A stretch of 64,000 bases of DNA, taken from contig USDL01000003.1 in assembly GCA_900553365.1 (NCBI GenBank), positions 24,258-88,257 of the forward strand, written 5' to 3'. The translations under genes and the position numbers were made by a program. Of the stretch, positions 1,946-33,545 are shown one piece after another (position 1 is the stretch's first letter; each line of letters starts with the position of its first letter). This stretch comes from an uncultured Clostridium sp. (GTDB lineage: Bacteria; Bacillota; Clostridia; TANB77; CAG-508). Under the pieces are notes generated by a model that ran no database searches, had not been told where the DNA came from, and worked only from the letters and a program-made list of their open reading frames with translations.

Positions 1946-2158
1946 ATGATTAAATTTAAGCTTTCAAATTTATTAGGCGAGCATAAAATGACTCAAAAAG
2001 CTCTTGCTGACCTAACTAAAATACGTCCTGCTACAATTTCAAAAATGTATTATGAAGAAATTAAAAGAATAGATATAAAGCAATTAGATAGCATTTGTAA
2101 AGCTTTTAATTGCGAAATCTCTGAACTTTTAGAATACATACCTGATAAAAAACAATAA
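1946..2158 (+). CDS. XRE-family helix-turn-helix transcriptional regulator (70 aa)
   Basis: The motif MTQKALADLTKIRPATISKMY is a Cro/C1-type HTH. SD GAGAGGAG lies upstream and a terminator immediately downstream. Confidence 0.7.
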   Translation: MIKFKLSNLLGEHKMTQKALADLTKIRPATISKMYYEEIKRIDIKQLDSICKAFNCEISELLEYIPDKKQ

Positions 2159-2192
2159 GCTAAGCACTTATAACTTAGCTTATTGTTTTTGT
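2154..2192. terminator. rho-independent terminator between convergent genes
   Basis: Hairpin AATAAGCTAAG-cacttataa-CTTAGCTTATT followed by GTTTTTG. Confidence 0.55.
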
Positions 2193-2950
2193 TGTTTCCC
2201 GTTATTGTCAATTATATAATTTTCTGTATAAATTAATTCTGTTACTGGCACAATTTTGTATCCTTTATTTTGTATATTTGTAATTATCATATCTAAGCTG
2301 TTTGCTGTATTTTCTGTGCCATTGTGCATTAGTATAATGCTTCCATTTTCTAAGTTTGGTTCTATCCTCTCCCACATCTGCTCTCCTGTTAATGCCTTAT
2401 AATCTAATGAATCAATAGACCACTGTATTGTATAATGGTTATTATCCTTTGCTGCTTGTATTACTGTATCATTATACTCTCCATAAGGGCCTCTGTATAA
2501 TGTACTTGGTTTTCCTGTTATTTTTTTTATCAAGTCTGAACACTTATTTATTTGCTCAACATTTTTATCGTAGCTTAAATTATTTACATGTGGGTGATTA
2601 TATGAATGGTTTGCCAGTTCATGGCCTGCCTGATATATTTTTCTTGCTGCTTCTTCGTTCTTTTCTATCCAATCTCCTACCATAAAAAATGTTACTTTTA
2701 CTTGATGTTTATCTAATGTTTCTAATATTTTATCCACATCCTCTGCATTCCATGCACAGTTTATTGTTAAGGATATTTTCTTTTCTTCTGTTTGAACTGA
2801 ATATATTGGCAGTTGCCTCTTAGTAGCTGCAGTTGCTATAGTGTTTTCTGGCGTTTTTGCGAAAAATGAAGTCATTAAAAATAGGGCAAACACGGTTGAA
2901 CATGCTACGACAAATGCCATTATTTTGTCTTTATTGAATACTAAAAACAT
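2180..2950 (-). CDS. polysaccharide deacetylase family protein (NodB; PdaA/PdaB-like), N-terminal anchor
   Basis: Contains the ...VTFFMVGDW...HELANHSYNHP...LYRGPYGE...ILMHN series of NodB motifs. N-terminal hydrophobic segment. Confidence 0.8.
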   Translation of the reverse strand: MFLVFNKDKIMAFVVACSTVFALFLMTSFFAKTPENTIATAATKRQLPIYSVQTEEKKISLTINCAWNAEDVDKILETLDKHQVKVTFFMVGDWIEKNEEAARKIYQAGHELANHSYNHPHVNNLSYDKNVEQINKCSDLIKKITGKPSTLYRGPYGEYNDTVIQAAKDNNHYTIQWSIDSLDYKALTGEQMWERIEPNLENGSIILMHNGTENTANSLDMIITNIQNKGYKIVPVTELIYTENYIIDNNGKQQKQ

Positions 2951-3001
2951 AATTAACCTCCAAAATTTAAGCTAATAAATTTTATGCTTGAATTTTGATA
3001 A

Positions 3002-4504
3002 TTATGCATTTGTTATAATTATTCTTCCATTTTTATTTTCTTTTTTTATTTCTTCTGCTCTGTATGTATAAATTCTATATTCGTTTTTACCATCAAATTT
3101 TATTCTTACTGCTTTTGTGTAGTCTGTTTTGTTCATTGGGTGTTTTTCTTCTATTATTAAACTTGCTTTTGTATTTTTTAGTGTTTCAAATGTTGTCATA
3201 AATCCTATTCCGCTTCCTCCTGTTTCTTTATGAGTAGTAATTTGTTCTAGTCCAAGTTTTAATAATGTTGGTATTTCAAATTCTATACCTGTATCATATA
3301 TACGAACTTCATAGTGTTCATCTATTATTCCTAGTATTAGCAATATATTTTTATTTGTATTGTTGCTACTATTTATTGCTATTATTGCGTCTTTTATGTG
3401 GTCACCTAGCATTGTTTCTAGCTTACTTTGCTCTACTATGTTTTCTATCATGTAGTTGATATTTCCATTTATTTTTACATTAAATTTTATATTGATTTTA
3501 GTTGCTTCTTGGTTCATGTATTCTAAAATATTATCTATGCCAAAGATTCCTGTTTTTGGTATTTTGTTTTCTATATTTTTCTCCATTTCCATAGTGTATT
3601 CTTTAGATAGTTTTTGTACTTGTTTTTCAAAATTTAAAAATTCATCTCCAAATTCTACTTTCATGTTTTCTACTATTTCTGGTTTTGACATTACTTTGTT
3701 TGAGAAGCCTTCTAATGCTTTTATTCTATTGCTGTATTTATGATTTATTGTAGCAATTCTTTGATTTTCTTCTAGGATGTTTTTTATTTCTTTGTCCTTT
3801 TCTTTTATTTCGTTTTCTAGTTCTTCTATTGTTTTTTCTTTTAATTTTTGTTTATAGTATTTGGTTATTTTCTGTTTAATCCAAATAAACATGCAGATAG
3901 ATTCAATGACAATGCCTAAAAATAAATATGTACCTGACTGCCATTCACTAGTATTGCTCACTATTGAGTATATTATTATGGTTATTCCAATAAATGCAAA
4001 ACCAATTATTCCTATATTATTTAGCTTTTTATTATCTTTTAAAAATGTTATACCATTCTTAAGCCTTTTAATTCTAAATATTCTATTTATTAATAATATT
4101 TCTACACATATTATTAGCATTAAGGAATAGATTGAATTAATTGGAAAGTCTGGCTCAATAAGCATTAATATAATTGCAACTATAACAACACTAATTGTGT
4201 ATACTAAATATGTAATACTAAAAGATGCTAGTGTTACAATTATAGAATAACTAAATTTATTGTTTGTTATTTTTGATATTACAAAACCATGTATTAAATA
4301 CATAACAATTAAAACTGGTAATACAGGAATATATTGTACAAGAAACACTTCCAAACTCGCTTCTATTATGCTTATTATTAAAATTGCGAGTGTTTTTAGC
4401 TTGTCATTATCTCCATAATCAGTTAGTTTTATAAATATGAAATATGTCAAAATATTTATAAAATCCACTTTTAATACTTTATTTACTATATCTATTATTT
4501 CCAT
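3002..4504 (-). CDS. membrane sensor histidine kinase, AgrC/LytS-like (6-7 TM N-domain, coiled coil, GHKL ATPase)
   Basis: Multi-TM N-terminus. H-box-like RIATINHKYSNRIKALE. C-terminal ATPase with ...HKETGGSGIGFMTTFETL. Probable start is MEIIDIV at 4504, which has an AGAGGGA SD. The track ORF extends to 4558. Confidence 0.7.
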   Translation of the reverse strand: MEIIDIVNKVLKVDFINILTYFIFIKLTDYGDNDKLKTLAILIISIIEASLEVFLVQYIPVLPVLIVMYLIHGFVISKITNNKFSYSIIVTLASFSITYLVYTISVVIVAIILMLIEPDFPINSIYSLMLIICVEILLINRIFRIKRLKNGITFLKDNKKLNNIGIIGFAFIGITIIIYSIVSNTSEWQSGTYLFLGIVIESICMFIWIKQKITKYYKQKLKEKTIEELENEIKEKDKEIKNILEENQRIATINHKYSNRIKALEGFSNKVMSKPEIVENMKVEFGDEFLNFEKQVQKLSKEYTMEMEKNIENKIPKTGIFGIDNILEYMNQEATKINIKFNVKINGNINYMIENIVEQSKLETMLGDHIKDAIIAINSSNNTNKNILLILGIIDEHYEVRIYDTGIEFEIPTLLKLGLEQITTHKETGGSGIGFMTTFETLKNTKASLIIEEKHPMNKTDYTKAVRIKFDGKNEYRIYTYRAEEIKKENKNGRIIITNA

Positions 4505-4593
4505 ATAATCCCTCTGTATTTTATTATATATAAATTGTAAAAAAAAATCAAACCACATATATTAATATGTGATTTGACTATACTATTTATTTT

Positions 4594-4641
4594 TTATACT
4601 CCGCCCCAATATAAGAAAAATTCCATTATTTTTTGCCACAT
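4594..4641 (-). CDS. 15-aa ORF MWQKIMEFFLYWGGV with a perfect SD, in the leader of the kinase gene
   Basis: AAAAGGAGGTGGGAATT-ATG. The ORF ends 90 nt upstream of the kinase start. Too short for the ORF track. Confidence 0.25.
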   Translation of the reverse strand: MWQKIMEFFLYWGGV

Positions 4642-4700
4642 AATTCCCACCTCCTTTTTTAATGAATTTGGTAATTTGCATTTTGTATAATACAAAAATA

Positions 4701-4727
4701 CCACCTAAGCTTGATTTCTTAGGTGGT
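4701..4727 (-). terminator. terminator downstream of the response-regulator gene (minus strand)
   Basis: CCACCTAAG-cttgatttc-CTTAGGTGG 9-bp stem. On the minus strand it is followed by a U-rich run. A weaker second hairpin lies at 4772-4797. Confidence 0.5.
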
Positions 4728-4804
4728 TTGGGGATGGAAAAATTATGCAATGAAATACAAAAAAATAAAAGCTCTAAACTTTTTGTTAGAGTTTTTATTG
4801 TTTT

Positions 4805-5599
4805 CTATAAATATTTTTTAATTTTATCTGCATAGTAATATATAAATTCTGTTGGTGTTGGCACTCCTGTTTGATGATTTATTCTAGCTGTATAATGTGT
4901 CATTAAGTCATCTATTGAGGATATTCTCCATGCATAGTTTATGGCTGTTTGCATCGCTCTGCTTATGCTACTATTACCAACTTTAAATTCGTTTGATAAA
5001 TAGTAAAATACTGAATCGTTGTTTTTTTCATCATTTTCTAATAGATACAAAATTGCATCAAATAAGTATTTTCTACCTTTTAAATGATTTGCTACTCCAA
5101 TTAGATCTAATTCATTGTTTATTTTATCTTTTATTCTGTTTTCATGCTCTATTGGCGTTTCTGTTGTAGTTTTAACTATATTAGTTTGATTATGGTATAT
5201 GGTTTCTCTTAATGAAACCATTGAATTTATTACCATTTCAGGGCTATAATCACTTTGTTTTTTATAAAAGATAAAATCTGTTCCCAAGTCATGAATATGG
5301 TTATACACTATATTTGATGAGACATTTGTAGTAACAACTATTAATGGTCTAAATTCTAATTTAGTTTTCTGCAATTCTTCTAAAAAGCTTATTCCTGAGC
5401 CTTCTCCTTTATGTAATTCTAAATCAAGGATTATTCCTTCTGGGACATACGTTTTTGTGTCCTTGATTCCTTCGTAGCTTGAATTTGTATGCTTTATTAT
5501 TTCTGCATCATTTCTAGTTTTTAAGTATTCTAGAAATTCTTTAACTTCAAGTTCATCATCTTCAATTAATAATATAGACATAGGTTTTTCAGTATTCAT
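4805..5599 (-). CDS. Spo0A-like response regulator paralog (receiver domain plus Spo0A_C-type DNA-binding domain)
   Basis: Receiver MSILLIEDDELEV...IILDLELH...FIFYKK. C-terminal LDLIGVANHLKGRKYLFDAILYLLEND...SRAMQTAINYAWR...PTPTEFIYYYADKI parallels Spo0A HEIGVPAHIKGYLYL...SRVERAIRHAIEVAW...PTNSEFIAMVADKL. SD AAGGAGGT upstream. Confidence 0.75.
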   Translation of the reverse strand: MNTEKPMSILLIEDDELEVKEFLEYLKTRNDAEIIKHTNSSYEGIKDTKTYVPEGIILDLELHKGEGSGISFLEELQKTKLEFRPLIVVTTNVSSNIVYNHIHDLGTDFIFYKKQSDYSPEMVINSMVSLRETIYHNQTNIVKTTTETPIEHENRIKDKINNELDLIGVANHLKGRKYLFDAILYLLENDEKNNDSVFYYLSNEFKVGNSSISRAMQTAINYAWRISSIDDLMTHYTARINHQTGVPTPTEFIYYYADKIKKYL

Positions 5600-5756
5600 A
5601 ATAGTTAATATTACCTCCTTAGTAAAACTTTAGTTTGGTAATCAAACTACCTATTTAATATACCACATTTTTCGGCAAATTTCCACATTTTTTGCATTGT
5701 TTGTTCCACACTTTTTTATTTGATTTTGAAATACACTATTTATGGAGGTTTAAATT

Positions 5757-6083
5757 ATGAAAGAAGAAATTGGAAAAAGAATTACAGAAATAAGAAAAAG
5801 CTTAAATATGAACAAGGAGCAGTTTGCTAAATTAATTGGGTTTAGCGGGCAATTCTTAGGCACTGTTGAATCAGGTGTAAATGGTTTAGCATTAGATAGA
5901 GTAATAGCTATTTGTGAGAAGACAAATACTTCTGCTGATTATCTTCTTTTTGGAAAGAGAACAATATTTGCTGATGATTTAAAGCAAATTTTTGAGAACA
6001 TTGATGAGTCTCAAATTGCTCCCGCTTTTGAAGCATTACAAAATATAGCTTTGTTCATAAAAGAATCTAAAAATTCTGCATAA
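5757..6083 (+). CDS. XRE-family HTH regulator (108 aa)
   Basis: EQFAKLIGFSGQFLGTVESG HTH motif. Divergent from the Spo0A-like gene. Confidence 0.7.
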   Translation: MKEEIGKRITEIRKSLNMNKEQFAKLIGFSGQFLGTVESGVNGLALDRVIAICEKTNTSADYLLFGKRTIFADDLKQIFENIDESQIAPAFEALQNIALFIKESKNSA

Positions 6084-6084
6084 T

Positions 6085-6115
6085 AAAAGATGGCTTTTGC
6101 CATCTTTTATTATTT
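6085..6115. terminator. bidirectional rho-independent terminator
   Basis: AAAAGATGGC-tttt-GCCATCTTTT followed by a T-run. It sits between the XRE stop and the FtsZ-paralog stop. Confidence 0.6.
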
Positions 6116-7062
6116 TACTCAACTCCGGTTGCTATAACAGTTACCTCTGTTTCATCTCCTAATGTTTCATCAATTACTGTTCCAAATAAAATGTTTGCAT
6201 CTGGATCAACCTTATCATTTATTACTTGAATAGCAGTATTAATTTCAATTAATCCTAGGTTTTCTCCTCCTCTTATGTTGAAGATTACACCTTTTGCATT
6301 ATCTATTTTATTTTCAGTTAATGGGTTATCAATAGCCCTTCTAACAGTATCTTCAAGTGGTTCATCATTTCTCTTTTTTGCAATTCCCATGTAGGCTTTT
6401 CCTTTATAACTAAAAATTGTTTGAACATCGGCGAAGTCTATATTAATATCTCCAACAGTTGTAATTAAGTCTGTTATGCTTTGAATACCTTGTTTTAGTG
6501 TATTATCAGCTAGTTCAAAAGCATCTTGTATTGATGTTTTGTCTCCAACTACTTTTAGCAAGTTATCATTCAAAACAACTATTAATGCATTAACATTTTC
6601 TTTTAGCTTTGCAATTCCACTATCTGCTCTAAGTGACCTTTTTCTACCTTCAAAAGTAAATGGTTTAGTAACAATTCCAACAGTTAAAATATTCATAGAT
6701 TTTGCAATTTCTGCAACTACTGGTGCTGCACCTGTTCCAGTTCCTCCTCCCATTCCAGCAGTTAAGAATAACATATCAGTGTTTTGTAAGATTTTTTTAA
6801 TTTCTTCTTTACTTTCAAGAGCTGCTTTTTCTCCTATTACTTCATTTGCACCAGCTCCTAATCCCTTTGTTGTTTCTTTACCAATTTGTAAAACGTTTTT
6901 AGCATTAGCCGTTTTTAGGCAATTAGTTTCTGTATTAAATAAATATGTCTCAATATTTGGAACTTCATCTGCAATCATTCTCATAACTGCATTGTTTCCT
7001 CCTCCTCCAACACCAATTACTTTTATTTTTGCTATTGCTTCTGTATTTTTTACATTATTCAT
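6115..7062 (-). CDS. FtsZ paralog: tubulin/FtsZ GTPase core only (315 aa), no C-terminal linker or tail
   Basis: KVIGVGGGGNNAV...AGMGGGTGTGAAPVVAEIAK (G-box). NIDFADV matches the T7 loop. Collinear with B. subtilis FtsZ up to ...VTVIATG, then a stop and a terminator. Confidence 0.85.
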   Translation of the reverse strand: MNNVKNTEAIAKIKVIGVGGGGNNAVMRMIADEVPNIETYLFNTETNCLKTANAKNVLQIGKETTKGLGAGANEVIGEKAALESKEEIKKILQNTDMLFLTAGMGGGTGTGAAPVVAEIAKSMNILTVGIVTKPFTFEGRKRSLRADSGIAKLKENVNALIVVLNDNLLKVVGDKTSIQDAFELADNTLKQGIQSITDLITTVGDINIDFADVQTIFSYKGKAYMGIAKKRNDEPLEDTVRRAIDNPLTENKIDNAKGVIFNIRGGENLGLIEINTAIQVINDKVDPDANILFGTVIDETLGDETEVTVIATGVE

Positions 7063-7187
7063 ATATAAATCACCTTTCCTTTTGCATTTTTTACTTTATT
7101 ATATTTTAATTTAAAAAGCAAGACCTTTGGTCATAAAATGATTATATATTATACCACAATTTTTTATTTTTTCATTAGTTTTTATAA

Positions 7188-7228
7188 TAAAAATCAGCTC
7201 TTTTTAATTTTGAGCTGATTTTTAAAAT
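7188..7228 (-). terminator. terminator downstream of spoIVA
   Basis: AAAATCAGCTC-(11 nt)-GAGCTGATTTT, with flanking T and A runs. Confidence 0.55.
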
Positions 7229-8707
7229 TTATAGTATTATACAAATTAGTCCGCCGCTGCCTTCATTTACTATTCTTTCTAGGGTTTCTTGTAGTTTTCC
7301 TTGTGCCTCTTCTGGCATTCTGTATAGTTTGTTTTGTAGTCCTTCATTAACTAATTCATGTAAATTCTTTCCAAATATATTTGATTCCCAAATTTTCTTT
7401 GGATCATTTTCAAATTCAGATAGTAAGTAATTTACTAGTTCTTCTGATTGTTTTTCGCTTCCTACTATTGGTGATACCTCTGTTTCTATGTCTGCTCTAA
7501 TTAGATGTATTGATGGTGCACGAGCTTTTAGTTTTACTCCAAATCTTGAGCCTTGTTTTACTATTTCAGGTTCATCAAGGATTAATTCTTCCATACTTGG
7601 CATCACTATTCCATATCCCTTTTGTCTTACTTCTTGCAATGCCATTGATACTTTATCATATTCTTTTTTTACATTTGCTAAGTTTTCCATAGTAGTAAAT
7701 AAATCTGCTTCATTTTTTATTTCTATTCCTGTAATTTCAGTAAGTATTTTATAGAATAAATTATTATTTAATGTTATTTCTATTGAAACTGAGCCTGTGC
7801 CTAAATCTATCTTATCTATTGTTGTTTTTACAATAATTTCTGTTTGCTTTATTCTTGATATACCAGTATTTATTGTTTTTATAGTTGTTATATCTTTAAA
7901 TGCGTCTTTTATTTCTTTAAATAATTCTTGTTTTAGTTCATGTTCATAATTTAAGCCATCTATCCATCCTGGGAAGTTAATATTTATTCTTTCTACTGGG
8001 AACTCATATAATATTCTTCCAAAAATGTTATTTATATCATCTGTACTTAAATTTGTGCAATCTGTTGGTATTACTGAAACGTTGTATTTTTCTTCTAACT
8101 CTTTTGCTAAATTTTGTGTTTCATCACTATGAGGATTATTTGTGTTAAGTACAATTACAAATGGTTTGTTTAATGCCTTTAGCTCACTTACAACTCTTGA
8201 TTCTGCCTCTACATAATCTTCTCTTGGAATTTCTGTTATGCTTCCATCTGTAGTTACTAATATTCCTATTGTTGAGTGTTCTGTAATAACTTTTCTTGTG
8301 CCTATTTCTGCCGCTTCTTCAAATGGAATTTCTTCATCTGACCATGGAGTTTTTACCATTCTCGGTACATCTTCTTCCATATACCCAATAGCATTGTTTA
8401 CTAAATAACCTACACAGTCAACCAATCTTGTTTTTAAATTTAAGTTGTCTCCTATTGTTATTTCAATAGCTTCATTAGGCACAAATTTGGGTTCTGTGGT
8501 CATTATTGTTCTTCCCGCAGCACTCTGTGGAAGTTCATCTCTTGCTCTTTCTCTTTTATAGCTGTTTTCTATGTTTGGAATAACTAATAAATCCATGAAA
8601 TTTTTTATAAATGTAGATTTTCCTGTTCTTACTGGTCCTACTACTCCAACATATATATCCCCATCTGTCCTTGCCCTAATGTCCTCATATACTCCTATAT
8701 TCTCCAT
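7229..8707 (-). CDS. spoIVA: stage IV sporulation protein A (spore coat morphogenetic ATPase)
   Basis: N-terminus MENIGVYEDIRARTDGDIYVGVVGPVRTGKSTFIKNFMDLLVIPNIE carries the SpoIVA Walker A. 492 aa. GGAGG SD. Confidence 0.9.
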   Translation of the reverse strand: MENIGVYEDIRARTDGDIYVGVVGPVRTGKSTFIKNFMDLLVIPNIENSYKRERARDELPQSAAGRTIMTTEPKFVPNEAIEITIGDNLNLKTRLVDCVGYLVNNAIGYMEEDVPRMVKTPWSDEEIPFEEAAEIGTRKVITEHSTIGILVTTDGSITEIPREDYVEAESRVVSELKALNKPFVIVLNTNNPHSDETQNLAKELEEKYNVSVIPTDCTNLSTDDINNIFGRILYEFPVERININFPGWIDGLNYEHELKQELFKEIKDAFKDITTIKTINTGISRIKQTEIIVKTTIDKIDLGTGSVSIEITLNNNLFYKILTEITGIEIKNEADLFTTMENLANVKKEYDKVSMALQEVRQKGYGIVMPSMEELILDEPEIVKQGSRFGVKLKARAPSIHLIRADIETEVSPIVGSEKQSEELVNYLLSEFENDPKKIWESNIFGKNLHELVNEGLQNKLYRMPEEAQGKLQETLERIVNEGSGGLICIIL

Positions 8708-8825
8708 AAAAATAATTACCTCCCATAACTTAAACGTTTGTACTAAACTTTAATTAATGTATATTAGGGGTAGGTAATTATTATTACTATTTTTTTGAAT
8801 TTTTTTATATGATTTTTCGAAATGA

Positions 8826-8975
8826 TTAATTATCTTTTTTATTTCTTGTTGCTTGTTCTATTTTTTCTACTTGCTCTTTTTGTTTTTCTATTGGAAGCCA
8901 ATGATATGTGGAGCATACAAATTCTCCATATTTTGTTGTATCTTCTTTTTTGTGTTCTTTTTTATCTTTTTGCAT
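8826..8975 (-). CDS. hypothetical small protein (49 aa) downstream of lexA
   Basis: Translation is MQKDKKEHKKEDTTKYGEFVCSTYHWLPIEKQKEQVEKIEQATRNKKDN. SD AAGAGGTG lies 6 nt upstream. Confidence 0.3.
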   Translation of the reverse strand: MQKDKKEHKKEDTTKYGEFVCSTYHWLPIEKQKEQVEKIEQATRNKKDN

Positions 8976-9044
8976 ACAAACACCTCTTTTTAGTAGTATT
9001 TGTTTTTTTATTTATTATATGCAAAAAGTGGAACTAAATATATC

Positions 9045-9704
9045 TTATAATTTTCTAAATACACCAGCAACTTTGCCTAGAATTTTGCAGTCTGGAACTA
9101 TTATTGGATCCATTGTATGATTTTCTGGTTGTAAACGTATGTGGTCTTTTTCTTTATAGAATGTTTTTACTGTTGCTTCATCTCCTATTAATGCAACAAC
9201 TATTTCTCCATTCATTGCTATATCTTGTTTTTTAACTAGTATATAATCTCCATCTAATATTCCTGCTTCTATCATACTTTCGCCTCTTACTGTAAGCATA
9301 AAGCTTTCGCTATTACCTATAAAATCTATTGGAATTGGGAATGTATCTGTTATGTTTTCTACTGCTAAAATTGGTGCTCCTGCTGTTATTTTTCCTATAA
9401 CTGGAACATCTACAAGTTCTTTTCCACTATATGCTGGTTTTTCTTCGAATTTTTCTTGTCCTTCTAATCCACCTTTTAATAGTTTTAGTGTTCTTCCTTT
9501 TTGGTCTTCTTTTTTAATATATCCTTTTTTCTGTAATCCTGTTATATATGTATGTACTGTAGCTGTTGAACTTAACCCTACTGCTTTTCCTATTTCCCTA
9601 ACTGATGGTGGGTATCCATTTTCTTTGATAGACTTTTCTATGTATTTTAATATTGCTTTTTCTCTTTTATTTAATTCATTTGGATCTTTTCTTCTCATCT
9701 GCAA
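9045..9704 (-). CDS. lexA: LexA repressor (S24 peptidase)
   Basis: N-terminal winged HTH (GYPPSVREIGKAVGLSSTATVHTY). Ala-Gly cleavage region (KITAGAPI). Ser/Lys dyad regions (RGESM...KTFYK). Confidence 0.9.
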   Translation of the reverse strand: MQMRRKDPNELNKREKAILKYIEKSIKENGYPPSVREIGKAVGLSSTATVHTYITGLQKKGYIKKEDQKGRTLKLLKGGLEGQEKFEEKPAYSGKELVDVPVIGKITAGAPILAVENITDTFPIPIDFIGNSESFMLTVRGESMIEAGILDGDYILVKKQDIAMNGEIVVALIGDEATVKTFYKEKDHIRLQPENHTMDPIIVPDCKILGKVAGVFRKL

Positions 9705-9826
9705 TCACTCCCTTTAAAAATATTTGCAAATATATTATCATAAATTTAAAAATTTGTCAAACAAAAGTTTTAATTTTTATTGTTTTTTTGTAAATTTTTT
9801 TATCTTACTATTTTTTTGTTTTTGGG

Positions 9827-9854
9827 TTGTTTTTTTTATTATTTTTGATATAAT
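9827..9854 (+). promoter_or_regulatory. putative sigma-A promoter for the EEP gene
   Basis: TTGTTT, 16-nt spacer, TG-a-TATAAT. A GGAGG SD follows at 9868. Confidence 0.35.
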
Positions 9855-9877
9855 GAATAGTAGAAAGTGGAGGTTTT

Positions 9878-10613
9878 ATGATATTAAAAGCAATTTCCTT
9901 TAATATGTGCCATCGGTGAAGGGCTTGATGGTAGAATTGATGTACGTAGACAGGCAATGTTACTAAAAAAGTATAAGCCTGATATTATTTTTCTACAAGA
10001 AATTGATGTATATACTAAGCGTGCATATAATAAAAATCAAATCTATACTTTTAGTAAATATACTGGTTTACCTTACAGAGCTATGGGAACTAATATTAAA
10101 TACAAAAACGGGTTTTATGGTGATGGACTTTTATCTCGTTTTCCTATTGAATATTCTGCAAATTATTTGTCTCCAACCACCTCTCCTGAACATGAGCAAC
10201 GTGGATTTTTATGTATTAAAGTTGGTGTTGGAACTATTAAGCTTAATTTGTTTTCCCTACATCTTTCCGTTTTTGAAGAAGAACGTGTTTTGTCTAGCAA
10301 AGCTCTATTGCGTATAACTTCTAATATAAATAAGTCTGAAGGCATTATTATTGCAGGAGATTTTAATGTTGGTGTTAAAAAAATTGGAACACATAGATAT
10401 ACTTATGAGCAAAAGGATTCTTTTGAGGAATATGAAATTTTAAAGAAAAAGTTTCATCATTTAGAAAATACTGAATCAACTTGGTTTTCTAAAGATGGAG
10501 TTGGCTGTATTGATTCTTGCTTTTATTCTAATAATTTAAAGCTTACTAAATTTGAAACGATTCCTACTCAAGTTTCTGACCATTATCCTATTTATATGGA
10601 GTTTGTAATTTGA
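9878..10613 (+). pseudogene. endonuclease/exonuclease/phosphatase (EEP) family protein interrupted by a +1 frameshift at about 9914
   Basis: ATG at 9878 with a strong GGAGG SD gives MILKAISFNMCHR-stop. Removing one C (CAT-C-GGT) yields MILKAISFNMCHGEGLDGRIDVRRQAMLLKKYKPDIIFLQEID..., a typical EEP N-terminus. The downstream frame matches the 218-aa track ORF. Confidence 0.7.
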
Positions 10614-10615
10614 AT

Positions 10616-10645
10616 AACGTTTTTGGGGATAGCCCCAAAAACGTT
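10616..10645. terminator. bidirectional terminator between the EEP gene and smc
   Basis: AACGTTTTTGGGG-atag-CCCCAAAAACGTT followed by ATTTTTT. Confidence 0.6.
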
Positions 10646-20501: not shown

Positions 20502-23271
20502 TTATATACCTTGTTTATTGCTTTGGCTAACATTTTCTTGTTCCTGAGCTTTTTTATTTTGTTCTTCTTCATTTTTTAGCTTTTCTAATTCATTTATTAA
20601 GCTTTGCAACTTTTCTATATCTTGTCCTACAAGTGCCCAGTTATTGCTCTTGTTTGATTCAGTTAAGTTATTGTTTGCTTTTATTATTTCGTCTATTAAG
20701 TCTTCTATATTTCCTGTTTCTATTTTTATACTTACAGCATCTTGTGATAATAGATTTGCTAAAGCTTCTCTTATATTATTTCCTATTGCAACTTTGTTGC
20801 CTGAAGCAACAATAACCTTTTTTAATATTGGTGATGTTTTATTTTCATTTTGCAGAACTTGGAATATTGGTTCTACATATAGTAAAGTATTGTTTACAGG
20901 AATTACTATAATATTTTTTTCGATTTTTGCTCCCATAACTTCTATTGCATTTAATTCTGCTGATATTTTTTCATCCTGCTCAACTAATGTATCTAGTTGT
21001 AGAGTTCCAAGTATTGCAACATCTTTATTAAATTTATATAGTTTTAGCACCTTTTCCCCATTTTCATTGCATGAACCTACTAAGTAGCTATTAATATTTT
21101 GCTTTTCTGTTATTGTATATGGTATAACTAATCCTAATTTTTCTTTATCACTGTCTACTGTTTTTACAAGTGTATAATATGGTTTTATGTCTGTTCCTAT
21201 TAATGTAGTTACTTTACTTGTATTTTCTTTTGCTGTATCCCAAACATCATCTGACCTGTATAATACTTCTGGCTGTACTTCATGATATTGTTTTAATATA
21301 TCTGCTTGAATATTGTATAAATATTCTGGATATACAAAATGTTTTGATATATCTTCTGGTATTTTTGCGTCTTTATCTTCAAATAGGCTTGGATACATTT
21401 TCCAATATGCCATTATTATTGGGTCTGTTCTATCTGTTATATAGAACTTCATTGTCCCATCATAGCTATCTACTATTACTTTTGCTGAGTTCCTTATGTA
21501 GTTTATTTTCTTTACTGTGCCATTGTCTTGAATTAAGTTTGTAACTTGTGAATATGGATAACTATTTGATGTTGTGTAACAATCAATTACCCATACCATT
21601 TTCCCTGAATCTGTTATTACCATGTATGGATTTTCATCATATTGTAAATATGGTAAAACTTTTTTTACTCTTTGTAATATATTTCTTTTTATTATTATAT
21701 TACTTTCAGAATTAATATTTGAAGAAAATGCAAGCTTTATTTTTCCTTCTTTTATTCCTAAAACTAATCTATCTAAGAAACCTAGTTGTATTCCTGCTTT
21801 TCCATTATATGTGTTGTAGCTATTGCTTGTACTAGTTAGAGGGTAATCATATTCTGTTTTTTCATTTTTATTTGTGGCAATTACCTCATTTGTTTGTAAG
21901 CCAAAATAAATTCTTGGTTCTTTTATTCTTATATTCTCATCTGTATCTACAAAGTTGCTCTTTATATACTTTAATGCTCCTATCTCTGAAGTTGTTGAAG
22001 CAGATGTTATTATTGCTCCATATCCATGTGTATATTCATGCATTTTATTGTTATAAGTTCTTGTTTCATTACTTATTATTTCGCGTGGGCTTACATATAC
22101 TAAAGTTTCTTTTCCATCTACATCATACACTCCTACACCGTGTTGAATCAAAAGTGTAAAAGCCTAAGCTTGTTTGATGTTCTTCTAAGTGTGATAATAC
22201 CCTTGTTTTATTGTATATATTGATATTATCTACAACGTTTTCATTTTGTTGAATATCATTTGCTGTTATAGTTCCTGTATTTTGTAAGTCGATTTCCTCT
22301 ATATTTATATCATAAGCTTGTTTTGTATATTTAATATTTTCAGCAATATAGTTTTTTTGGTTATCTAATTCATTTCTTTTTACATAAGTAACATCTACTA
22401 ATATTACTACTAAAAATAGCACAACTAGATAAATTGGTATTTGTAAAACTGCATAGCAAGCTTTTCTATATTCTTGCTTTCTGGTTTTTATTAATGCTCT
22501 TATTGCATTTATTACTATAAATACTGAGAAGATAATATATCCCCATTTTTTTATTGTTACATCTATAAAACCTGCACCATAAAGTGATGTACCGTTTTGA
22601 GTTGTAGTAAATTTACCCAATACAATTTCTTGGACTGTAATTATTGATAATATTGAAATTGCAAGTAGTATTAAAAATATATTTGTTACAATTTGTTTTA
22701 TAAAAGTATTCTTTTTTAGTGTATCCATATTTATGCCTTGATTAAAAAATTTATGAAAACATATTACATAATATACTGTTATATGTAAACACATTACTGC
22801 CATTACAATTATAAAACTATATAGTATTGCCTCGATAAATGGCTTTTGGAACACATAATATCCAATATCTAGATTAAATACTGGCTCTGTTCTTGCAAAA
22901 AAAGTTCTATTAAAGAAAAGTATTGCTTTTTCTGTAATTGTGCCTGAAAATATTAATCCTGCAATGGTTGCATAAGCAAAAGATATTGATTTATTAGGAA
23001 GTTTTGGCATTTCTTTTTTATCTTCATTGAAAAACTTTTTTAGTCCTTTTTTTACAAAAGCTGTTGTTATATAGCTTAATAAATATATGATTGCAAAACT
23101 TGCTAAAAACACATAAGTTCTTTGTTTTAAATTGTGTTTAAATATTTCCAAATATTGTTCTCCTATGCTTAGAATCTGTAGGTATTCTCCTCTTATGTTT
23201 ATAATACTATATATTGCAAATATTATAAGAAATAAAATTACAAATATCTCTCTTTTCCTTATTTTTTTCAT
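20502..23271 (-). pseudogene. UPF0182 family membrane protein interrupted by a +1 frameshift at about 22140
   Basis: The N-terminal 382-aa multi-TM ORF (22123-23271) and the C-terminal 549-aa ORF (20502-22151) are collinear halves of an approximately 900-aa UPF0182 protein. Removing one C (ACA-C-GGT) joins ...SLGFYTFDST to GVGVYDVDGKETLVYVSPREI. Confidence 0.75.
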
Positions 23272-28175: not shown

Positions 28176-29522
28176 TTAGGTATATTTGTCTAACATCCAG
28201 CCACCCATGTATACTTGAATTAATGGTACTATAACTACTAAAACTACAAATATTAAAACCAATCCTACAAATATTTGTACTATTTGTGGTAATACTTTTA
28301 TTACTTTTTGTATTATATTGTCTATATCTATTTGCATATAGCTATTTAATTTTTCCATCATTTCAGTTAGGTCTGTTTGCATACCTATTTTTAGCATTTC
28401 TGTTATCATTGGTGTTGATAATCCTGATTTTTCGAATGGTTCTATCCAGCTTTGACCTATTAATATGTTATTTATTGCTGATTCAATTAATGATAACATA
28501 ACTGAATTGTTTGTAATATTTCTACTAGTTTCCAAAGCTTCCTGTATTCTTAATCCATTTTTTAAGTTTAATAATATTGATTGAACTAGTCTTGAAAAAT
28601 CTATTGCATATATTAGCTTACCAAATATAGGCATTGTATATTTAAAATAGTGATATTTATATTTTCCTTGTGGAGTCCTTATATAAGCTATGATTGAAAC
28701 CACTATTGCTGCTATAATTACAACTGGTATATACCATATTTTTGCTACTGCATTTATTAAATTTGAAAACCACAATGTTAATGCAGGCAATTTGGCATCT
28801 GAACCAAAACTCTTAAATACATTTTGAATCATTGGTACTGATATAATTGTTCCTACTACTGCCAAAACCATTAATACTACGAATTGTACCAAGTTTGGTA
28901 TTAATATTTCCCTTAGCTTTTTATTCATTGCTTCTGTATCTTCAAGGTATTTTACTGCTTGCTCTAATGCATTTGTAAGCGAACCTGATAATTCACCTAC
29001 TTTAATCATATTTATGTATATTGGAGGAAATATAGAGCTATAGTACTCCATTGTTGTATACATGTTTTCTCCTGCTTCTACTCCAAGCAATATATCCTCT
29101 ACTATTATTCTAAGTGTTTGGTTTTCTATTGTTTCTATAACTGTTGTTAAAGCATGTATGTTATTAAAATTTGCTTTTTTCAAAAGATAAAAGTTTTCTG
29201 TAAATACCAATATGTCTCTCTTTTTTATAGCTTTATGCTTTTGCATAGTGTCTTTCATTCTTCTAAACCAGTTATCTTTTTTGTTCATACTTTTTTCAAT
29301 TTGTTCTGCTCTAACTTGTTTTAAAACACTATTATTTGCTTCAATGTTTCTTTTTTGCTTATTAATATTTTTATTAGCTTTAACATTAATTGATACCACG
29401 GAAATTGGATACAAGTCATTATTTTTTAACTTCTTCAATAAGGCATATTTATTTGGTGCATCTATTCTGTTTTCTACAACATCTCCTGCCTTTGTTGCGG
29501 CTCTATACTTGTATATAGGCAT
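28176..29522 (-). CDS. pilC: type IV pilus inner-membrane platform protein PilC (GspF family)
   Basis: 448 aa. Polytopic with two T2SSF-type repeats. Last gene of the pilus operon. Confidence 0.85.
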   Translation of the reverse strand: MPIYKYRAATKAGDVVENRIDAPNKYALLKKLKNNDLYPISVVSINVKANKNINKQKRNIEANNSVLKQVRAEQIEKSMNKKDNWFRRMKDTMQKHKAIKKRDILVFTENFYLLKKANFNNIHALTTVIETIENQTLRIIVEDILLGVEAGENMYTTMEYYSSIFPPIYINMIKVGELSGSLTNALEQAVKYLEDTEAMNKKLREILIPNLVQFVVLMVLAVVGTIISVPMIQNVFKSFGSDAKLPALTLWFSNLINAVAKIWYIPVVIIAAIVVSIIAYIRTPQGKYKYHYFKYTMPIFGKLIYAIDFSRLVQSILLNLKNGLRIQEALETSRNITNNSVMLSLIESAINNILIGQSWIEPFEKSGLSTPMITEMLKIGMQTDLTEMMEKLNSYMQIDIDNIIQKVIKVLPQIVQIFVGLVLIFVVLVVIVPLIQVYMGGWMLDKYT

Positions 29523-29550
29523 ATATTTTCCCTCCGTTCTAATGAATACT

Positions 29551-30648
29551 TTATTGCATCATTTTCATTTTCATTTGCATAATTGTTCTATTAAGAATTT
29601 CTATATTTTTTTCTTCTAGTTGTGATTTTGCTTGCTCTAATGTGATTTTATTTTTAACATATAATTCAGCTAGTGAATTTATTAAACTTACATTTCCTTT
29701 TCCTAAACTGCTTTGTATTGCATCTTCTAGTTCAGATACGCTAAATTTTTCTTTTCTTATACATCCAGCTACTACATTATCTACCACCATAACTTCTGGC
29801 AATAGTACCAACTTTCCATCTACTCCTCTTAATAGTCTTTGTGATACTATTAGTTTTAATAATGAAGCTATTAAGTACTTAACTGAGCCTTGGTCTCTTA
29901 TCTCATAGAAGTTTATTATTCTGTCTATTGTTTCTGCACATGATTTAGTATGTAAAGTTCCCAATACTAAATGACCAGATTCTGCCATGTCAATAGCTGC
30001 TTCCATTGTTTCTTTGTCTCTAATCTCTCCTATAATTAGTATATCACAGTCTTCTCTTAACGCATTTTTTACACCGTCTCTATAAGTTATTACGTCTTTA
30101 CCAATTCCAACCTCTTTTTGTACTATTAATGATTTTTGTGAAGTATGTTTAAATTCTATAGGTTTTTCTAGAGAAAGGATTTTTTTGTTTTCATTTTGAT
30201 TTATTTCATTTATTAATGCATTAAGTGTTGTTGTTTTACCAGAGTTTGTTTTTCCTGTTACTAATATTAATCCTTGTGGTTGATACATCATTCTTCTAAC
30301 TACATCTGGAATTCCAAGTTCTGAAAATTGTGGTAATGTATTTTTAATTAATCTAAGTGTTGCAACAGGAATATCATCTGAAGAAGATATATTTCCTCTA
30401 AATCTTACTCCTTCATATTCATAAGAAAAATCTAGTTTTTTAGTTTTACTATATTCTTCATCTTTTTGTATATTTCCTCGTACGAAATAATCGTACATTT
30501 CATCCATATCTTCTGCATCTAATATTTCTTCATCTTCTATTTCATTTAATTCTCTTGCTACTCTAAGCATTGGTCTTTTTCCTGCAACTAAATGTATATC
30601 TGATGCATTTTTTTCTATTGCTTCTTGAAAAATTTTGTTTATATTCAT
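29551..30648 (-). CDS. pilT: type IV pilus retraction ATPase PilT
   Basis: 365 aa. Walker A GKTNSGKTTTL. Asp box. GTLHT His-box. Confidence 0.85.
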   Translation of the reverse strand: MNINKIFQEAIEKNASDIHLVAGKRPMLRVARELNEIEDEEILDAEDMDEMYDYFVRGNIQKDEEYSKTKKLDFSYEYEGVRFRGNISSSDDIPVATLRLIKNTLPQFSELGIPDVVRRMMYQPQGLILVTGKTNSGKTTTLNALINEINQNENKKILSLEKPIEFKHTSQKSLIVQKEVGIGKDVITYRDGVKNALREDCDILIIGEIRDKETMEAAIDMAESGHLVLGTLHTKSCAETIDRIINFYEIRDQGSVKYLIASLLKLIVSQRLLRGVDGKLVLLPEVMVVDNVVAGCIRKEKFSVSELEDAIQSSLGKGNVSLINSLAELYVKNKITLEQAKSQLEEKNIEILNRTIMQMKMKMMQ

Positions 30649-30678
30649 ATTATTCTTCTCCTCATCAGTATTTTAAAC

Positions 30679-32307
30679 TTAATATATTGCTACTTTTTTA
30701 TTCAATTCTTCCAATGTTGTTATACCTTGTAAAACTTTATGTATTCCATCAATTGAAAGTGGAACATATCCTTCTTCTAATGCTGTTTGTCTAATGCTTA
30801 GGCTTGATGCTCCATGTATTATTTGTTCTTTTATTTCATCTGTTATTGTTAAAATTTCAAAAATACCAATTCTTCCCAAATAGCCTGTTTGATTACATTC
30901 TTTACAACCTACTGGTGTATAAGTATATTTATCTGTAAAATCTATTTCTTGATTATATCTTTTTGCAAAATTCTTCATGATTTTCTTTTCTTCTTCTGTA
31001 AATTCCCTTTTTTTAGCACATTTTGGGCATAATCTTCTCACTAATCTTTGTGATATTGATGTTGCTAAGGTACTTGAAATGTCGTAATCAGATATTCCCA
31101 TTTTTCTTAATCTTGTTATAACTTCTAAGCTATCTATTGTGTGGATTGTTGATAAAACATAATGTCCTGTTTGACCAGCTTGCATTGCAATTTCTGCTGT
31201 TTCCTGGTCTCTTATTTCTCCAACAAGAATTATATCAGGGTCTTGTCTTAATACTGTTCTTAATGAATCAGAAAATCTTAGTTTTTCTGAAATTTCTATT
31301 TGGTTTAAACCTGGTATACGAATTTCAACTGGGTCCTCAATAGTTGTTATATTTATATTTGGATTATTTAAGTAATCTATTATACTATATAAAGTTGTTG
31401 TTTTACCTTCACCTGTTGGTGCTGCAATAACTGTTATACTATTTCTTTTGTTAAGTTTTTTTCTAATCTCTTCATCTGTTTGGTTAAATCCAAGTTCTTC
31501 TAAGCCCATAATGCTCATGTTTTTCTTTAGTAATCTTAAAACAAACTTTTCTCCATAAATATTCTTCTGTGAAGACACACGAATGTTGTAATCTGGGTAA
31601 AGTATAATTCTACCATCTTGAGATTCTTGCTTTTCTTGGAACATGTTAGATATAGCTTTTAATCTACCTATTATTTGTCCCTGTTTTTCCTTTTTAATCT
31701 CTGTTGCTTTTATTAATTCACCATCAATTCTATATCTTACTCTAACAGAATCTTCTAATGGTTCTATATGTATATCACTCGCTCTTTTTCTCATTGCAGA
31801 TTTTATAATGCTATCTATTAAAGTGGTTGCATCCTCTCCAGTATCTATATTTTCAGAATCTGTTCCTTCTAGCGAATTCAAAACAGATTTTATGTTTTTC
31901 TCAAAGGTTACATATTTGTCCATTACTAAGCCTTTATTAAGCAATACTAACCTAACAGCTTCAGTAGATGCTTTAGAACTACTATCTGCAAAACATACTT
32001 TTACTCTATCACCTACAATTTCAAAAGGTATTGCTAGATATTTTCTTGCCATATCTAATGATATATATTTTTTAACATCAATTTTTACATCAGCATAAGA
32101 AAACATCACTGCTTTCTCATCAAGAATTTCTCCTAGTATTTGTAATAAGGTGTATTGATCGCATAAATTTAAAATATTGATAATTTCAATTATCTTTTTG
32201 CTTGGGTTTCTTCTCTGATATTCTAATGCCTTATCGATATCAGATTGTGTTAATATTCCTCTTCTTACCAATTCAATTCCAATTGGGCCTCTTCTTTTTG
32301 AATCCAT
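30679..32307 (-). CDS. pilB: type IV pilus assembly ATPase PilB (GspE family)
   Basis: 542 aa. N-terminal T2SSE_N domain. Walker A APTGEGKTTTLYS. Tetracysteine CPKC...CKEC. Confidence 0.9.
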   Translation of the reverse strand: MDSKRRGPIGIELVRRGILTQSDIDKALEYQRRNPSKKIIEIINILNLCDQYTLLQILGEILDEKAVMFSYADVKIDVKKYISLDMARKYLAIPFEIVGDRVKVCFADSSSKASTEAVRLVLLNKGLVMDKYVTFEKNIKSVLNSLEGTDSENIDTGEDATTLIDSIIKSAMRKRASDIHIEPLEDSVRVRYRIDGELIKATEIKKEKQGQIIGRLKAISNMFQEKQESQDGRIILYPDYNIRVSSQKNIYGEKFVLRLLKKNMSIMGLEELGFNQTDEEIRKKLNKRNSITVIAAPTGEGKTTTLYSIIDYLNNPNINITTIEDPVEIRIPGLNQIEISEKLRFSDSLRTVLRQDPDIILVGEIRDQETAEIAMQAGQTGHYVLSTIHTIDSLEVITRLRKMGISDYDISSTLATSISQRLVRRLCPKCAKKREFTEEEKKIMKNFAKRYNQEIDFTDKYTYTPVGCKECNQTGYLGRIGIFEILTITDEIKEQIIHGASSLSIRQTALEEGYVPLSIDGIHKVLQGITTLEELNKKVAIY

Positions 32308-32386
32308 AATCTAGACTCCTTTCGTTTATTTATATAGTTAATTATAATACATTTCTTTAAATTTTAAAATATATTTTTACATATTA

Positions 32387-32890
32387 CTATAAACTTCCAT
32401 TTTCGAATATTTCTATCAAGTCGCTTTCATTAGCCTTTTTTAATTTTGAAACACTCTTTTCATAAGTTTTATCTCCTACAGTTTTTTGCATCTTTATGTG
32501 TATAATTTTAACCAAATCAAGTTGTACTTCACTGTTCTCAGGAATATAGTTATCTACATTTATTTGTATTTTATACGGAGTTGTTAGGTTTTCTAATGAT
32601 GAACCTGCACTAAAATATTCTGAATCTTTTGCATTTACATAGTTAATTAAATTTGCTTCTGTTACATCCTTAAAGTCTGCCTGCTGAACATATTCTAATA
32701 TTTCAGTAACAACATCTAAGTACATACTATTTAATTTAATCTTTGTTTTTTCTGAAAAAATATTAATTGTTATTGAGGTTACAATTCCAGCAAAAAGAAG
32801 TATTATTAATATTGCTACAATGGCATCTGCCACAATAATTCCTTTTTTTTCTTTAAATATGTTTATTTTAGCCATATATTCCTTTCTCAA
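32387..32890 (-). CDS. minor pilin-like protein (prepilin-type N-terminus with Asp at +5)
   Basis: N-terminus KEKKG-IIVADAIVAILIILLFAGIV, then a globular domain. It sits between pilD and pilB. Confidence 0.45.
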   Translation of the reverse strand: MRKEYMAKINIFKEKKGIIVADAIVAILIILLFAGIVTSITINIFSEKTKIKLNSMYLDVVTEILEYVQQADFKDVTEANLINYVNAKDSEYFSAGSSLENLTTPYKIQINVDNYIPENSEVQLDLVKIIHIKMQKTVGDKTYEKSVSKLKKANESDLIEIFENGSL

Positions 32891-32927
32891 AATGGTTAAA
32901 CATTTTGTATTTTACTAATTTAGAATT

Positions 32928-33545
32928 TTAGAAAATTATAGTTGCCATTTCTACTATACCCAAAATTGTAAATAATACAAATGACATTATTTTTAGTTTT
33001 TCATTTGTTTCTTTTCTATTATTAAAAATTGTCATTAACGTTAGAGTTACTAAGTATATAATATATCTATATATACTAGTATCCAATATGTATAGATATA
33101 TCATATAGCATGCTTCAGCTAAAATACCAAAATTGAATACTGATTGTTGTATTTTTTTATATTCTTTAAAAATTCCAATAATTATAAAAACTGTACTTAA
33201 AAATAGAACTCCGAAAATTAGTGTTGCAATTTTTGAGTAATTTATATTTAGTAAATCTATTTTAAGTAAAATAGCAAATAAAAGAAACACAAGTCCAGAT
33301 GAAACTTCTAATATAAGATACCTTGGTCTTATTTTTTCTTTGCAGTATCTGCATTTTCCACCTAAAAATATATAACTTAATATTGGAATTAAATCCAAGA
33401 AATTTAATTTATGATTACACTTTGGGCAATATGATCTGGTATGCGTAATGTCTTGTTTTAAAGGAATTCTATATACTGCTAAAGTATAAAAACTGCCTAA
33501 AACTGCCCCCATTGTAAACATAAAGAAATAAATAATAGCGTTCAA
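32928..33545 (-). CDS. pilD: prepilin peptidase-like protein (A24 family; short, the second catalytic-Asp motif is not recognisable by eye)
   Basis: N-terminus GSFYTLAVYRIP...SYCPKCNHKLNFLDLIPILSYIFLGGKCRYCKEKI is the PilD N-terminal Cys-box domain. Polytopic C-terminus. 205 aa. No GxGDxK-like motif seen. Confidence 0.6.
   Translation of the reverse strand: MNAIIYFFMFTMGAVLGSFYTLAVYRIPLKQDITHTRSYCPKCNHKLNFLDLIPILSYIFLGGKCRYCKEKIRPRYLILEVSSGLVFLLFAILLKIDLLNINYSKIATLIFGVLFLSTVFIIIGIFKEYKKIQQSVFNFGILAEACYMIYLYILDTSIYRYIIYLVTLTLMTIFNNRKETNEKLKIMSFVLFTILGIVEMATIIF

Follow-up and report, generated by a model that had tools for sequence, protein, structure and literature searches.

A tail-less FtsZ family of uncultured gut Clostridia, probably an accessory form of the division GTPase

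A 64-kb stretch of contig USDL01000003.1 from an uncultured Clostridium sp. (64,000 nucleotides, referred to here as the window) encodes at 6115–7062, on the minus strand, an FtsZ that consists of the polymerizing core and ends where the core ends. We use the name ftsZs for this gene and for the family to which it belongs, a monophyletic group of tail-less FtsZs of 309–329 amino acids (aa). The family is old, fast-diverged and limited to uncultured low-GC gut Clostridia. Its absence from sister species, the existence of copies on mobile elements and the presence of a SepF with tail-contact residues make it very probable that ftsZs is an additional, accessory FtsZ with a canonical partner in the same cell. 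From its sequence we favour, with somewhat better than even confidence, a co-assembling paralog that cannot be tethered to the membrane and that would modulate the Z ring instead of serving as a division scaffold.

A core-only FtsZ and its family

Domain, family and structure comparisons agree on the assignment of the protein. Both Pfam domains score above their curated cutoffs (Tubulin, PF00091, residues 12–172, 153.7 bits; FtsZ_C, PF12327, residues 221–315, 90.3 bits), and the NCBIfam ftsZ equivalog model TIGR00065 returns 358.9 bits against a cutoff of 295.2, with a match that spans only profile positions 11–325 of 353. The closest solved structure is Bacillus subtilis FtsZ (2VAM, E = 1.6e-97), whose residues 7–314 pair gaplessly with residues 6–313 of the window protein; the two are ~52% identical, with zero indels. 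The G-box MGGGTGTGAAP (G103-MGGGTGTG-A112) and the T7 loop (N207-I-D209-F-A-D212) are both in place. A first-pass annotation of the window, which omitted the strand of the gene, had described a core-only FtsZ with these motifs that aligns along its whole length and stops after ...VTVIATG into a terminator, and the comparisons bear this description out. The protein ends ...VTVIATGVE, two residues past the last core strand (..VTVIATG), and directly 3′ of the stop codon lies a hairpin with a 15-bp stem (−20.4 kcal/mol, z = −6.1). It has neither a C-terminal linker nor the conserved C-terminal peptide (D/E-I/L-P-x-F-L-R). In FtsZ, this peptide docks FtsA, SepF and EzrA and is seen as the site at which membrane tethers universally dock.

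The short length of ftsZs is a conserved family trait and not the product of truncation or of an assembly artefact. The best 120 matches among 5.8 billion proteins are 67–100% identical to ftsZs and 300–327 aa long, with two exceptions, the 247-aa P0047, which is a truncated piece, and the 483-aa P0030, a canonical FtsZ that contains an internal repeat; the named homologues among them come from 'Clostridia bacterium' metagenome-assembled genomes (MAGs). We also scanned GTDB at one genome per species with patterns specific to ftsZs, which could not reveal a paralog. At least 20 species carry the gene, at 64–90% identity to the window protein and a locus GC content of 26–30%, including uncultured Clostridium sp. 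UMGS1740, Clostridium sp. CAG:452, and Hadza and other MAGs. In 20 of 20 species at 64% identity or more, the protein stops 2–4 residues after ..IATG, and further members at 60–70% identity are tail-less as well. The C-terminal extension rarely reaches up to 17 residues, with the motif still absent, and all 60 retrieved canonical FtsZs (56% identity or less) carry a linker and an IPxFLR-type peptide. A truncated ftsZs on a 980-kb contig was considered as a case of pseudogenization and set aside as most likely a long-read error, many genes of that assembly being frameshifted. The exact window protein occurs in 737 blocks of the assembly collection, and the places shown, six of six, are human-gut metagenome assemblies. 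No description of a tail-less ftsZs family was found in the literature searched.

A neighbour-joining tree places the family as a single clade on a long stem. Canonical FtsZs share 54–64% core identity across phyla, and ftsZs shares 49–52% with every canonical group, Clostridium included. Among 93 columns that are near-invariant in our canonical sample, the family keeps 65 and changes 28; the changes include D45E, P74E, D158N, P164L, S252K, G255N, F314V and a variable Q47 (numbering of the ftsZs query, which equals Escherichia coli numbering up to the T7 loop). D45E and Q47 lie in the T2 loop, P74E in the T3 loop, and D158N and P164L around T6, and we take several of these substitutions, from the established structure of FtsZ, to fall on the 'top' face, where the nucleotide binds. 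The family shows no variation in the T7 ('bottom') face, in the residue equivalent to E. coli L272 or in the catalytic and GTP motifs, with MGGGTGTG, N207, D209 and D212 unchanged in 25 members. Ratios of nonsynonymous to synonymous substitution of 0.03–0.14 between close pairs, together with the altered invariant positions, indicate a functional protein with shifted constraints.

Sister species, SepF and the case for a second FtsZ

Sister species were located by searching with the SepF of the window organism. The two that emerged (L095 and L097/L098) are as close to the window species as L011 is, with 89–93% identical LexA and 88–90% identical SpoIVA. The ftsZs cassette occurs in the window species and in L011; the sisters share the order lexA, small open reading frame (ORF), spoIVA, helix-turn-helix (HTH) gene, Spo0A-like gene ... 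sepF, divIVA, with the ftsZs slot vacant. In L095, 42 bp separate the spoIVA stop from the HTH stop, and this interval contains the same hairpin (aaaagatggc...gccatctttt) that stands behind ftsZs in the window. L095 is a common organism, its exact SepF sequence being present on 303 contigs, and the 5.8-billion-protein collection holds no ftsZs at 81–98% identity beyond the window type and the L011 type. Window-type ftsZs is found on 349 contigs, compared with ~356 for its SepF, and the L011 type on about 360. The clusters checked at 76–80% identity are all rare, those of CAG-452 and L012 aside, and the one abundant cluster at 70% is a member of the group in which ftsZs follows sigH. The sister species therefore appear to live without ftsZs, and the empty slot combined with the lack of a matching orthologue would then require another FtsZ in the genus.

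SepF supports the same reading. The sepF and divIVA genes lie 8.5 kb from ftsZs, and no further division genes occur in the ~10 kb past each window end. The SepF has an N-terminal amphipathic helix and a core that is ~50% identical, gaplessly, to that of B. subtilis, and within the clade it is at least as conserved as ftsZs. It carries a lysine and a phenylalanine six residues apart, like K125 and F131 of Corynebacterium glutamicum SepF, which touch the FtsZ C-terminal peptide and are needed for binding (PMC7118173). A SepF with these tail-contact residues leads us to expect a tail-bearing FtsZ in the same organism.

The canonical gene itself was sought by an exhaustive search of representatives, which returned no canonical match above 57% identity and no AT-rich candidate. 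P0030, considered as the canonical FtsZ of the same organism, proved to be a melainabacteria-like FtsZ, with an internal repeat, of the gene cluster for division and the cell wall (dcw). A metagenome scan for FtsZ gave mostly unrelated FtsZs among the matches listed, and queries with FtsA and dcw proteins found no match in ~460 kb of clade DNA, an uninformative result given that this covers ~1% of each genome. The claim of the first-pass annotation that ftsZs is a 'second' FtsZ is thus very probable from the sister species, the mobile copies and SepF, although the window itself shows no first one. Its placement outside the dcw cluster stands insofar as mur, ftsQ, ftsA, spoIIGA, sigE and sigG are all absent within 10 kb in 22 family loci, but the window holds no dcw cluster for comparison (its 40–58-kb region is a polysaccharide synthesis cluster). 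The usual division context of ftsZ is the dcw cluster and, in Clostridia, a site upstream of spoIIGA–sigE–sigG. Location is in any case weak proof of paralogy: only 9 of 60 canonical ftsZ loci have mur or ftsQ nearby, and the canonical ftsZ of Clostridium sensu stricto is likewise not beside mur genes. In that genus (L036) canonical ftsZ has a pilT homolog immediately upstream, which is not the case in the window.

Several points weigh against an accessory, co-assembling ftsZs. Neither the window (by tblastn) nor the ~10 kb past either end contains another FtsZ homologue. The sisters might hold a tail-less copy below 67% identity elsewhere, given that the best 120 matches were listed. Strong purifying selection, a strong constitutive promoter and order-level retention in probably small genomes would be unusual for a dispensable paralog. 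Judged from the sequence, the T2, T3 and T6 substitutions on the nucleotide face could impair co-assembly and favour homopolymers.

One alternative is that ftsZs is the sole FtsZ of its hosts, having lost its tail, left its usual context and become tethered in some new way. That ftsZs passes the equivalog cutoff, is under strong purifying selection behind a strong housekeeping promoter and has no second copy beside it in any sequence read, window included, would fit such a protein, as would its occurrence in 20 or more GTDB species of a clade whose genomes are probably reduced (PMC11680825) and the view of FtsZ as single-copy in Firmicutes (PMC8136486). We nevertheless consider a sole FtsZ very unlikely: sisters with the empty slot have no matching orthologue in the collection, extra copies travel on mobile elements, SepF conserves its contacts with the FtsZ tail, and ftsZs diverges more from every canonical FtsZ than canonical FtsZs of different phyla do from one another. 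Moreover, all tail-less FtsZs known to us are second copies.

Locus, chromosomal contexts and mobile copies

In the window, ftsZs forms a complete single-gene cassette (Table 1). Its own hairpin-bounded promoter and strong ribosome-binding site define an independent transcription unit, and the terminator hairpin of spoIVA isolates it transcriptionally from that gene. Every chromosomal subgroup examined has an equivalent promoter (TTGAAA or TGGACA, 17 nt, TATAAT or TGtTATACT), and strong ribosome-binding sites are common to all family members. Expression is predicted from these promoter signals to be vegetative and constitutive. SOS control, considered on account of the neighbouring lexA, was rejected, the GAAC-N4-GTTC box being absent near ftsZs and even near lexA; matches to it are no commoner than chance. 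A tail supplied in trans by the 49-aa ORF beside spoIVA was likewise discarded, as this ORF lacks the IPxFLR motif.

Table 1 Coordinates of ftsZs, its signals and other features of the window, and of one mobile element (last row, in its own record)
Feature	Position	Strand	Basis or record
ftsZs, tail-less FtsZ core coding sequence, 315 aa (GTPase and FtsZ_C domains)	6115..7062	-	ATG start; Pfam, NCBIfam and 2VAM comparisons
Ribosome-binding site AGGAAAGGTG, 8 nt 5′ of the ftsZs ATG	7071..7080	-	sequence read
Own sigma-A-type promoter of ftsZs: ATGAAA, 16 nt, extended -10 TGgTATAAT	7148..7175	-	sequence read
Bidirectional intrinsic terminator hairpin, AUAAUAAAAGAUGGC-AAAA-GCCAUCUUUUAUUAU, for ftsZs and the convergent HTH gene	6080..6113	.	
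spoIVA terminator hairpin (aaatcagctc...gagctgattt); upstream cassette edge	7189..7224	-	
Complete single-gene cassette (terminator, promoter, ribosome-binding site, ftsZs), ~1.1 kb	6114..7228	-	
Convergent HTH_3 regulator, 108 aa (Cro/CI, DicA/RstR-like)	5757..6083	+	
spoIVA, intact, upstream neighbour, not co-transcribed with ftsZs	7229..8707	-	
Spo0A_C response regulator	4805..5599		domain/family match
Multi-transmembrane protein, 518 aa, GHKL-like C terminus	3002..4558		
Protein with weak bactofilin domain, 493 aa	17921..19402		
UPF0182 family membrane protein, two overlapping ORFs	20502..23271		
Type IV pilus gene set	28176..33545		
L101 mobile element region	7262-20930		GCA_964320525.1, CAYCZV010000002.1

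The flanks are those named by the first-pass annotation, spoIVA on one side and a Spo0A-like module on the other. The response regulator of this module reaches 93 bits, where the cutoff for true Spo0A is 200, and is a Spo0A paralog. Adjoining it is the multi-transmembrane protein, which looks like a hypervariable sensor: even where assemblies agree at 100% in the flanking proteins, their copies of it share only 77% identity, and copies from different species share 51–59%. The convergent HTH gene is probably not part of the ftsZs unit and is found in sisters with or without ftsZs. Within the L095 species another arrangement exists (L096, 2654–3637), in which GntR and ABC genes and an rve-family transposase replace lexA–spoIVA–HTH directly upstream of the Spo0A-like gene, which marks the region around the ftsZs slot as a rearrangement hot spot.

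Across the family the chromosomal surroundings differ from group to group. The window species and L011 share the order lexA, 49-aa ORF, spoIVA, ftsZs, convergent HTH gene, Spo0A-like regulator, multi-transmembrane protein; CAG-452 has obg, lexA, ftsZs, small ORF, spoIVA; and in L012 ftsZs stands between pilin-like genes and a Spo0A-like regulator. A large set of loci (L017–L025, L106, L186–L188) has GH18, sigH, ftsZs, thrS, ychF, an order that is stable over many species. Elsewhere the gene lies between DUF4130 and MatE genes (L026–L030, with intervening genes on both sides), downstream in the order trpS, obg ... ftsZs (L107), or next to addB (L108). Where sigH is directly upstream (for example L018, 9168–10882), a terminator and a sigma-A promoter intervene. 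The thrS gene of this group, a single 644-aa gene in L018, appears as two ORFs in three independent assemblies (L186–L188, 11393–13329), one of 290 aa with TGS and tRNA_SAD domains and one of 324 aa with the catalytic and anticodon-binding domains.

The CAG-452 group keeps ftsZs although the Walker A motif of its spoIVA carries a +1 frameshift that its members share. The frameshift is an extra C in GTAGTA-C-GGCCCAGTAAGA, within the motif GPVRTGKST (L007, 11242–12721; also L013, L014 (Clostridium sp. CAG:452) and L015), and is found in the representatives of three GTDB species as well as in several metagenome assemblies. The frame downstream of it is still 91% identical to the intact SpoIVA of the window, and the frameshift reflects either a recent pseudogenization, with loss of sporulation, or a recoding site at a rare CGG codon.

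These contexts speak to the proposal of the first-pass annotation that ftsZs may regulate asymmetric division, that is, act as a sporulation-specific regulator of septation. The proposal draws on the adjacency of spoIVA and a Spo0A_C response regulator in this genus and of sigH in another subclade. Adjacency to spoIVA and the Spo0A-like module is, however, limited to one genus and not fixed even there, and neighbourhoods are not conserved across the family; the promoters are of the sigma-A type, and no subgroup has a promoter for a sporulation sigma factor; and ftsZs is kept where spoIVA is frameshifted and missing from sisters in which spoIVA is intact. We regard a sporulation-specific role as extremely improbable.

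Three further contexts place ftsZs on integrated mobile elements of this bacterial clade, close to replication genes. In L099/L100 (P0007, 77% identical) the order is two DUF3846 genes, ORF, ftsZs, ORF, DnaB_2, HTH_26. In L101 (P0017, 79%) it is HTH_17 (excisionase-like), DUF3846, ORF, DnaB helicase, ftsZs, ORF, DnaB_2, HTH_26, with 2 nt between the helicase and ftsZs; a sortase, two integrases and a DUF927 gene lie in the neighbourhood, and ordinary chromosomal genes adjoin the region in its MAG. L103 (P0025, 78%; 42–9185) has WYL, AAA, DnaB helicase and ftsZs, with HicAB nearby, and its helicase is 72–80% identical to that of L101. The element-borne copies form one subclade beside the window/CAG-452 group in the neighbour-joining tree. 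Some neighbours of ftsZs match PHROG families, and ftsZs itself matches none. Downstream of sigH–ftsZs in L023 (4262–6219) lie a decayed partial ftsZs copy and a DnaA-domain-III-like ORF (247 aa); this locus also has a 236-aa degenerate FtsZ-like N-domain protein with the G-box lost, and again pairs genes derived from FtsZ with one that resembles a replication initiator. The window cassette is one instance of a gene that has been gained, lost and relocated between chromosomal sites and mobile elements, an accessory and partly mobile character that the first-pass annotation had not foreseen.

An origin of ftsZs in phages, plasmids or defence systems was dropped after searches of the corresponding collections. 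Relatives beyond host-like FtsZ (51% identity or less) are absent from 50,697 phage records, phage and plasmid records together gave only host-like FtsZs at 53% identity or less, and three scans of IMG/VR and the PADLOC families found none. A weapon or decoy of mobile elements could nonetheless be imagined, in which ftsZs arrests or delays host division while the element replicates, as an untetherable dominant-negative subunit or as a sponge for FtsZ-targeting factors, with the window copy a stranded or domesticated remnant. The three element contexts, two of them with ftsZs right behind a DnaB helicase, suit this explanation, as do the PHROG-matching neighbours, the clean single-gene indel beside a phage-type Cro/CI repressor in the window and the cluster of decayed copy, DnaA-like ORF and degenerate FtsZ-like ORF in L023. 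We think it unlikely, because the element copies form one shallow subclade whereas the deep branches (the sigH–ftsZs–thrS group, the L026 group, L107 and L108) are stable chromosomal genes, because the phage, IMG/VR and PADLOC searches gave no relative beyond host-like FtsZ, and because a constitutive sigma-A promoter would be costly for a division inhibitor.

Elsewhere in the window, the UPF0182 membrane protein appears as ORFs of 382 and 549 aa that cover profile positions 5–375 and 380–768, through either a frameshift or a genuine split. The protein with the bactofilin domain (29.5 bits) is a possible cytoskeletal element. The pilus set comprises PilB-like and PilT-like ATPases, a PilC-like platform protein and a prepilin peptidase. 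Together with the 27.9% GC of the window, this cluster fits the uncultured order TANB77, which is reported to combine reduced genomes with a distinct GC content and conservation of a pilus cluster (PMC11680825).

Proposed role and comparison with known systems

The role that we favour for ftsZs, as an accessory subunit of the Z ring, can be laid out as a sequence of predicted steps. The protein, which retains all the features that GTP binding and hydrolysis in a head-to-tail filament require, would be made from its own housekeeping promoter and would polymerize in this way. Lacking the tail, it could not be anchored to the membrane through SepF or FtsA or recruit proteins that depend on the C-terminal peptide. 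By analogy with other tail-less FtsZs, it may co-assemble with the canonical FtsZ of the cell, which is the most likely mode of action because the two are ~50% identical without indels. Mixed filaments would then have a diluted tether density and altered turnover or dynamics, modulating the Z ring, and abundant ftsZs would be expected to inhibit division. The remodelled top face and conserved bottom face invite speculation about end-specific effects such as capping. On a mobile element, co-transcription of ftsZs with the replicative helicase suggests that the same activity serves to delay division while the element replicates, or to segregate it. More doubtfully, integrative elements may have recruited a tail-less FtsZ core into a replication operon to control the host Z ring or to move their own DNA, with the chromosomal copies since exchanged or domesticated.

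A cytomotive filament system apart from the Z ring, used in the manner of TubZ or PhuZ to position or segregate DNA, the element's own included, or for another cellular structure, seems to us distinctly improbable. The long branch and altered nucleotide-face loops would suit a polymer that no longer mixes with FtsZ, and the linkage to replication genes in elements recalls TubZ/RepX on Bacillus plasmids. Against this, ftsZs scores above the equivalog cutoff and, at ~52% identity, aligns with B. subtilis FtsZ without indels; TubZ and PhuZ have diverged much further and bind an adaptor through a C-terminal tail; and the chromosomal copies have no conserved adaptor gene.

The family amounts to a natural experiment: a widespread, strongly conserved FtsZ core without a tail, gained and lost between sister species and borne on elements beside the replicative helicase. 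If it does co-assemble, ftsZs would be an intrinsic modulator of tether density and of the dynamics of filaments, the equivalent in bacteria of chloroplast FtsZ1. It could also give mobile elements a means of manipulating host division and, if elements did recruit it, would constitute the first mobile FtsZ system of a dominant-negative or decoy type. Its hosts are Clostridia, probably of the TANB77 type (PMC11680825), that are uncultured and prevalent in the human gut; almost nothing is known of their cell biology, but the protein is open to heterologous expression and study of its assembly in vitro. FtsZ has been treated as monogenic in surveys of Firmicutes (PMC8136486), and extra copies outside the dcw cluster are mentioned only for a few other phyla (PMC9871819).

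Compared with canonical FtsZ (TIGR00065; 2VAM), ftsZs shares the two-domain core, the gapless alignment, the G-box, the T7 aspartates and the L272 equivalent. It differs in having no linker or peptide, in 28 of 93 conserved core positions, in not lying beside spoIIGA–sigE–sigG or mur genes, and in a patchy distribution among congeneric species, sometimes on mobile elements, where canonical FtsZ is universally retained. By analogy, its function is closest to that of the alphaproteobacterial tail-less extra FtsZs and of plastid FtsZ1. FtsZ1 of Agrobacterium tumefaciens, FtsZ2 of Sinorhizobium meliloti and FtsZm of Magnetospirillum are, like ftsZs, core-only proteins encoded outside the dcw cluster, and all three are extra copies; FtsZ copies were also found on rhizobial plasmids in a search of plasmid records. 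The cell can dispense with A. tumefaciens FtsZ1, which is active as a GTPase and forms co-polymers with the essential FtsZ (bioRxiv 10.1101/412759). In contrast to these proteins, ftsZs has an independent origin in Firmicutes, a much longer branch and, in some genomes, linkage to a DnaB-helicase replication operon, and it is known from sequence alone. Chloroplast FtsZ1 lacks the tether-binding C-terminal core motif, co-assembles with FtsZ2 and raises ring dynamics (PMC8142252, PMC3494859, PMC12343686); it is an obligatory plastid partner, whereas ftsZs appears dispensable at the level of species. The element-borne copies resemble TubZ/RepX and PhuZ as FtsZ-superfamily GTPases in replication or partition modules of Firmicutes mobile elements (PMC9871819). 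The sequences of TubZ and PhuZ are only very distantly related to FtsZ, and these proteins use a C-terminal tail and a dedicated adaptor (TubR), whereas ftsZs has a near-canonical core, no tail, no conserved TubR-like gene beside it and no PHROG match. Archaeal FtsZ1 and FtsZ2 offer a precedent for two FtsZs with divided labour, and Haloferax SepF binds only one of the two (PMC8187382). Unlike ftsZs, the archaeal proteins stem from an ancient duplication that has been retained universally, and both have C-terminal regions.

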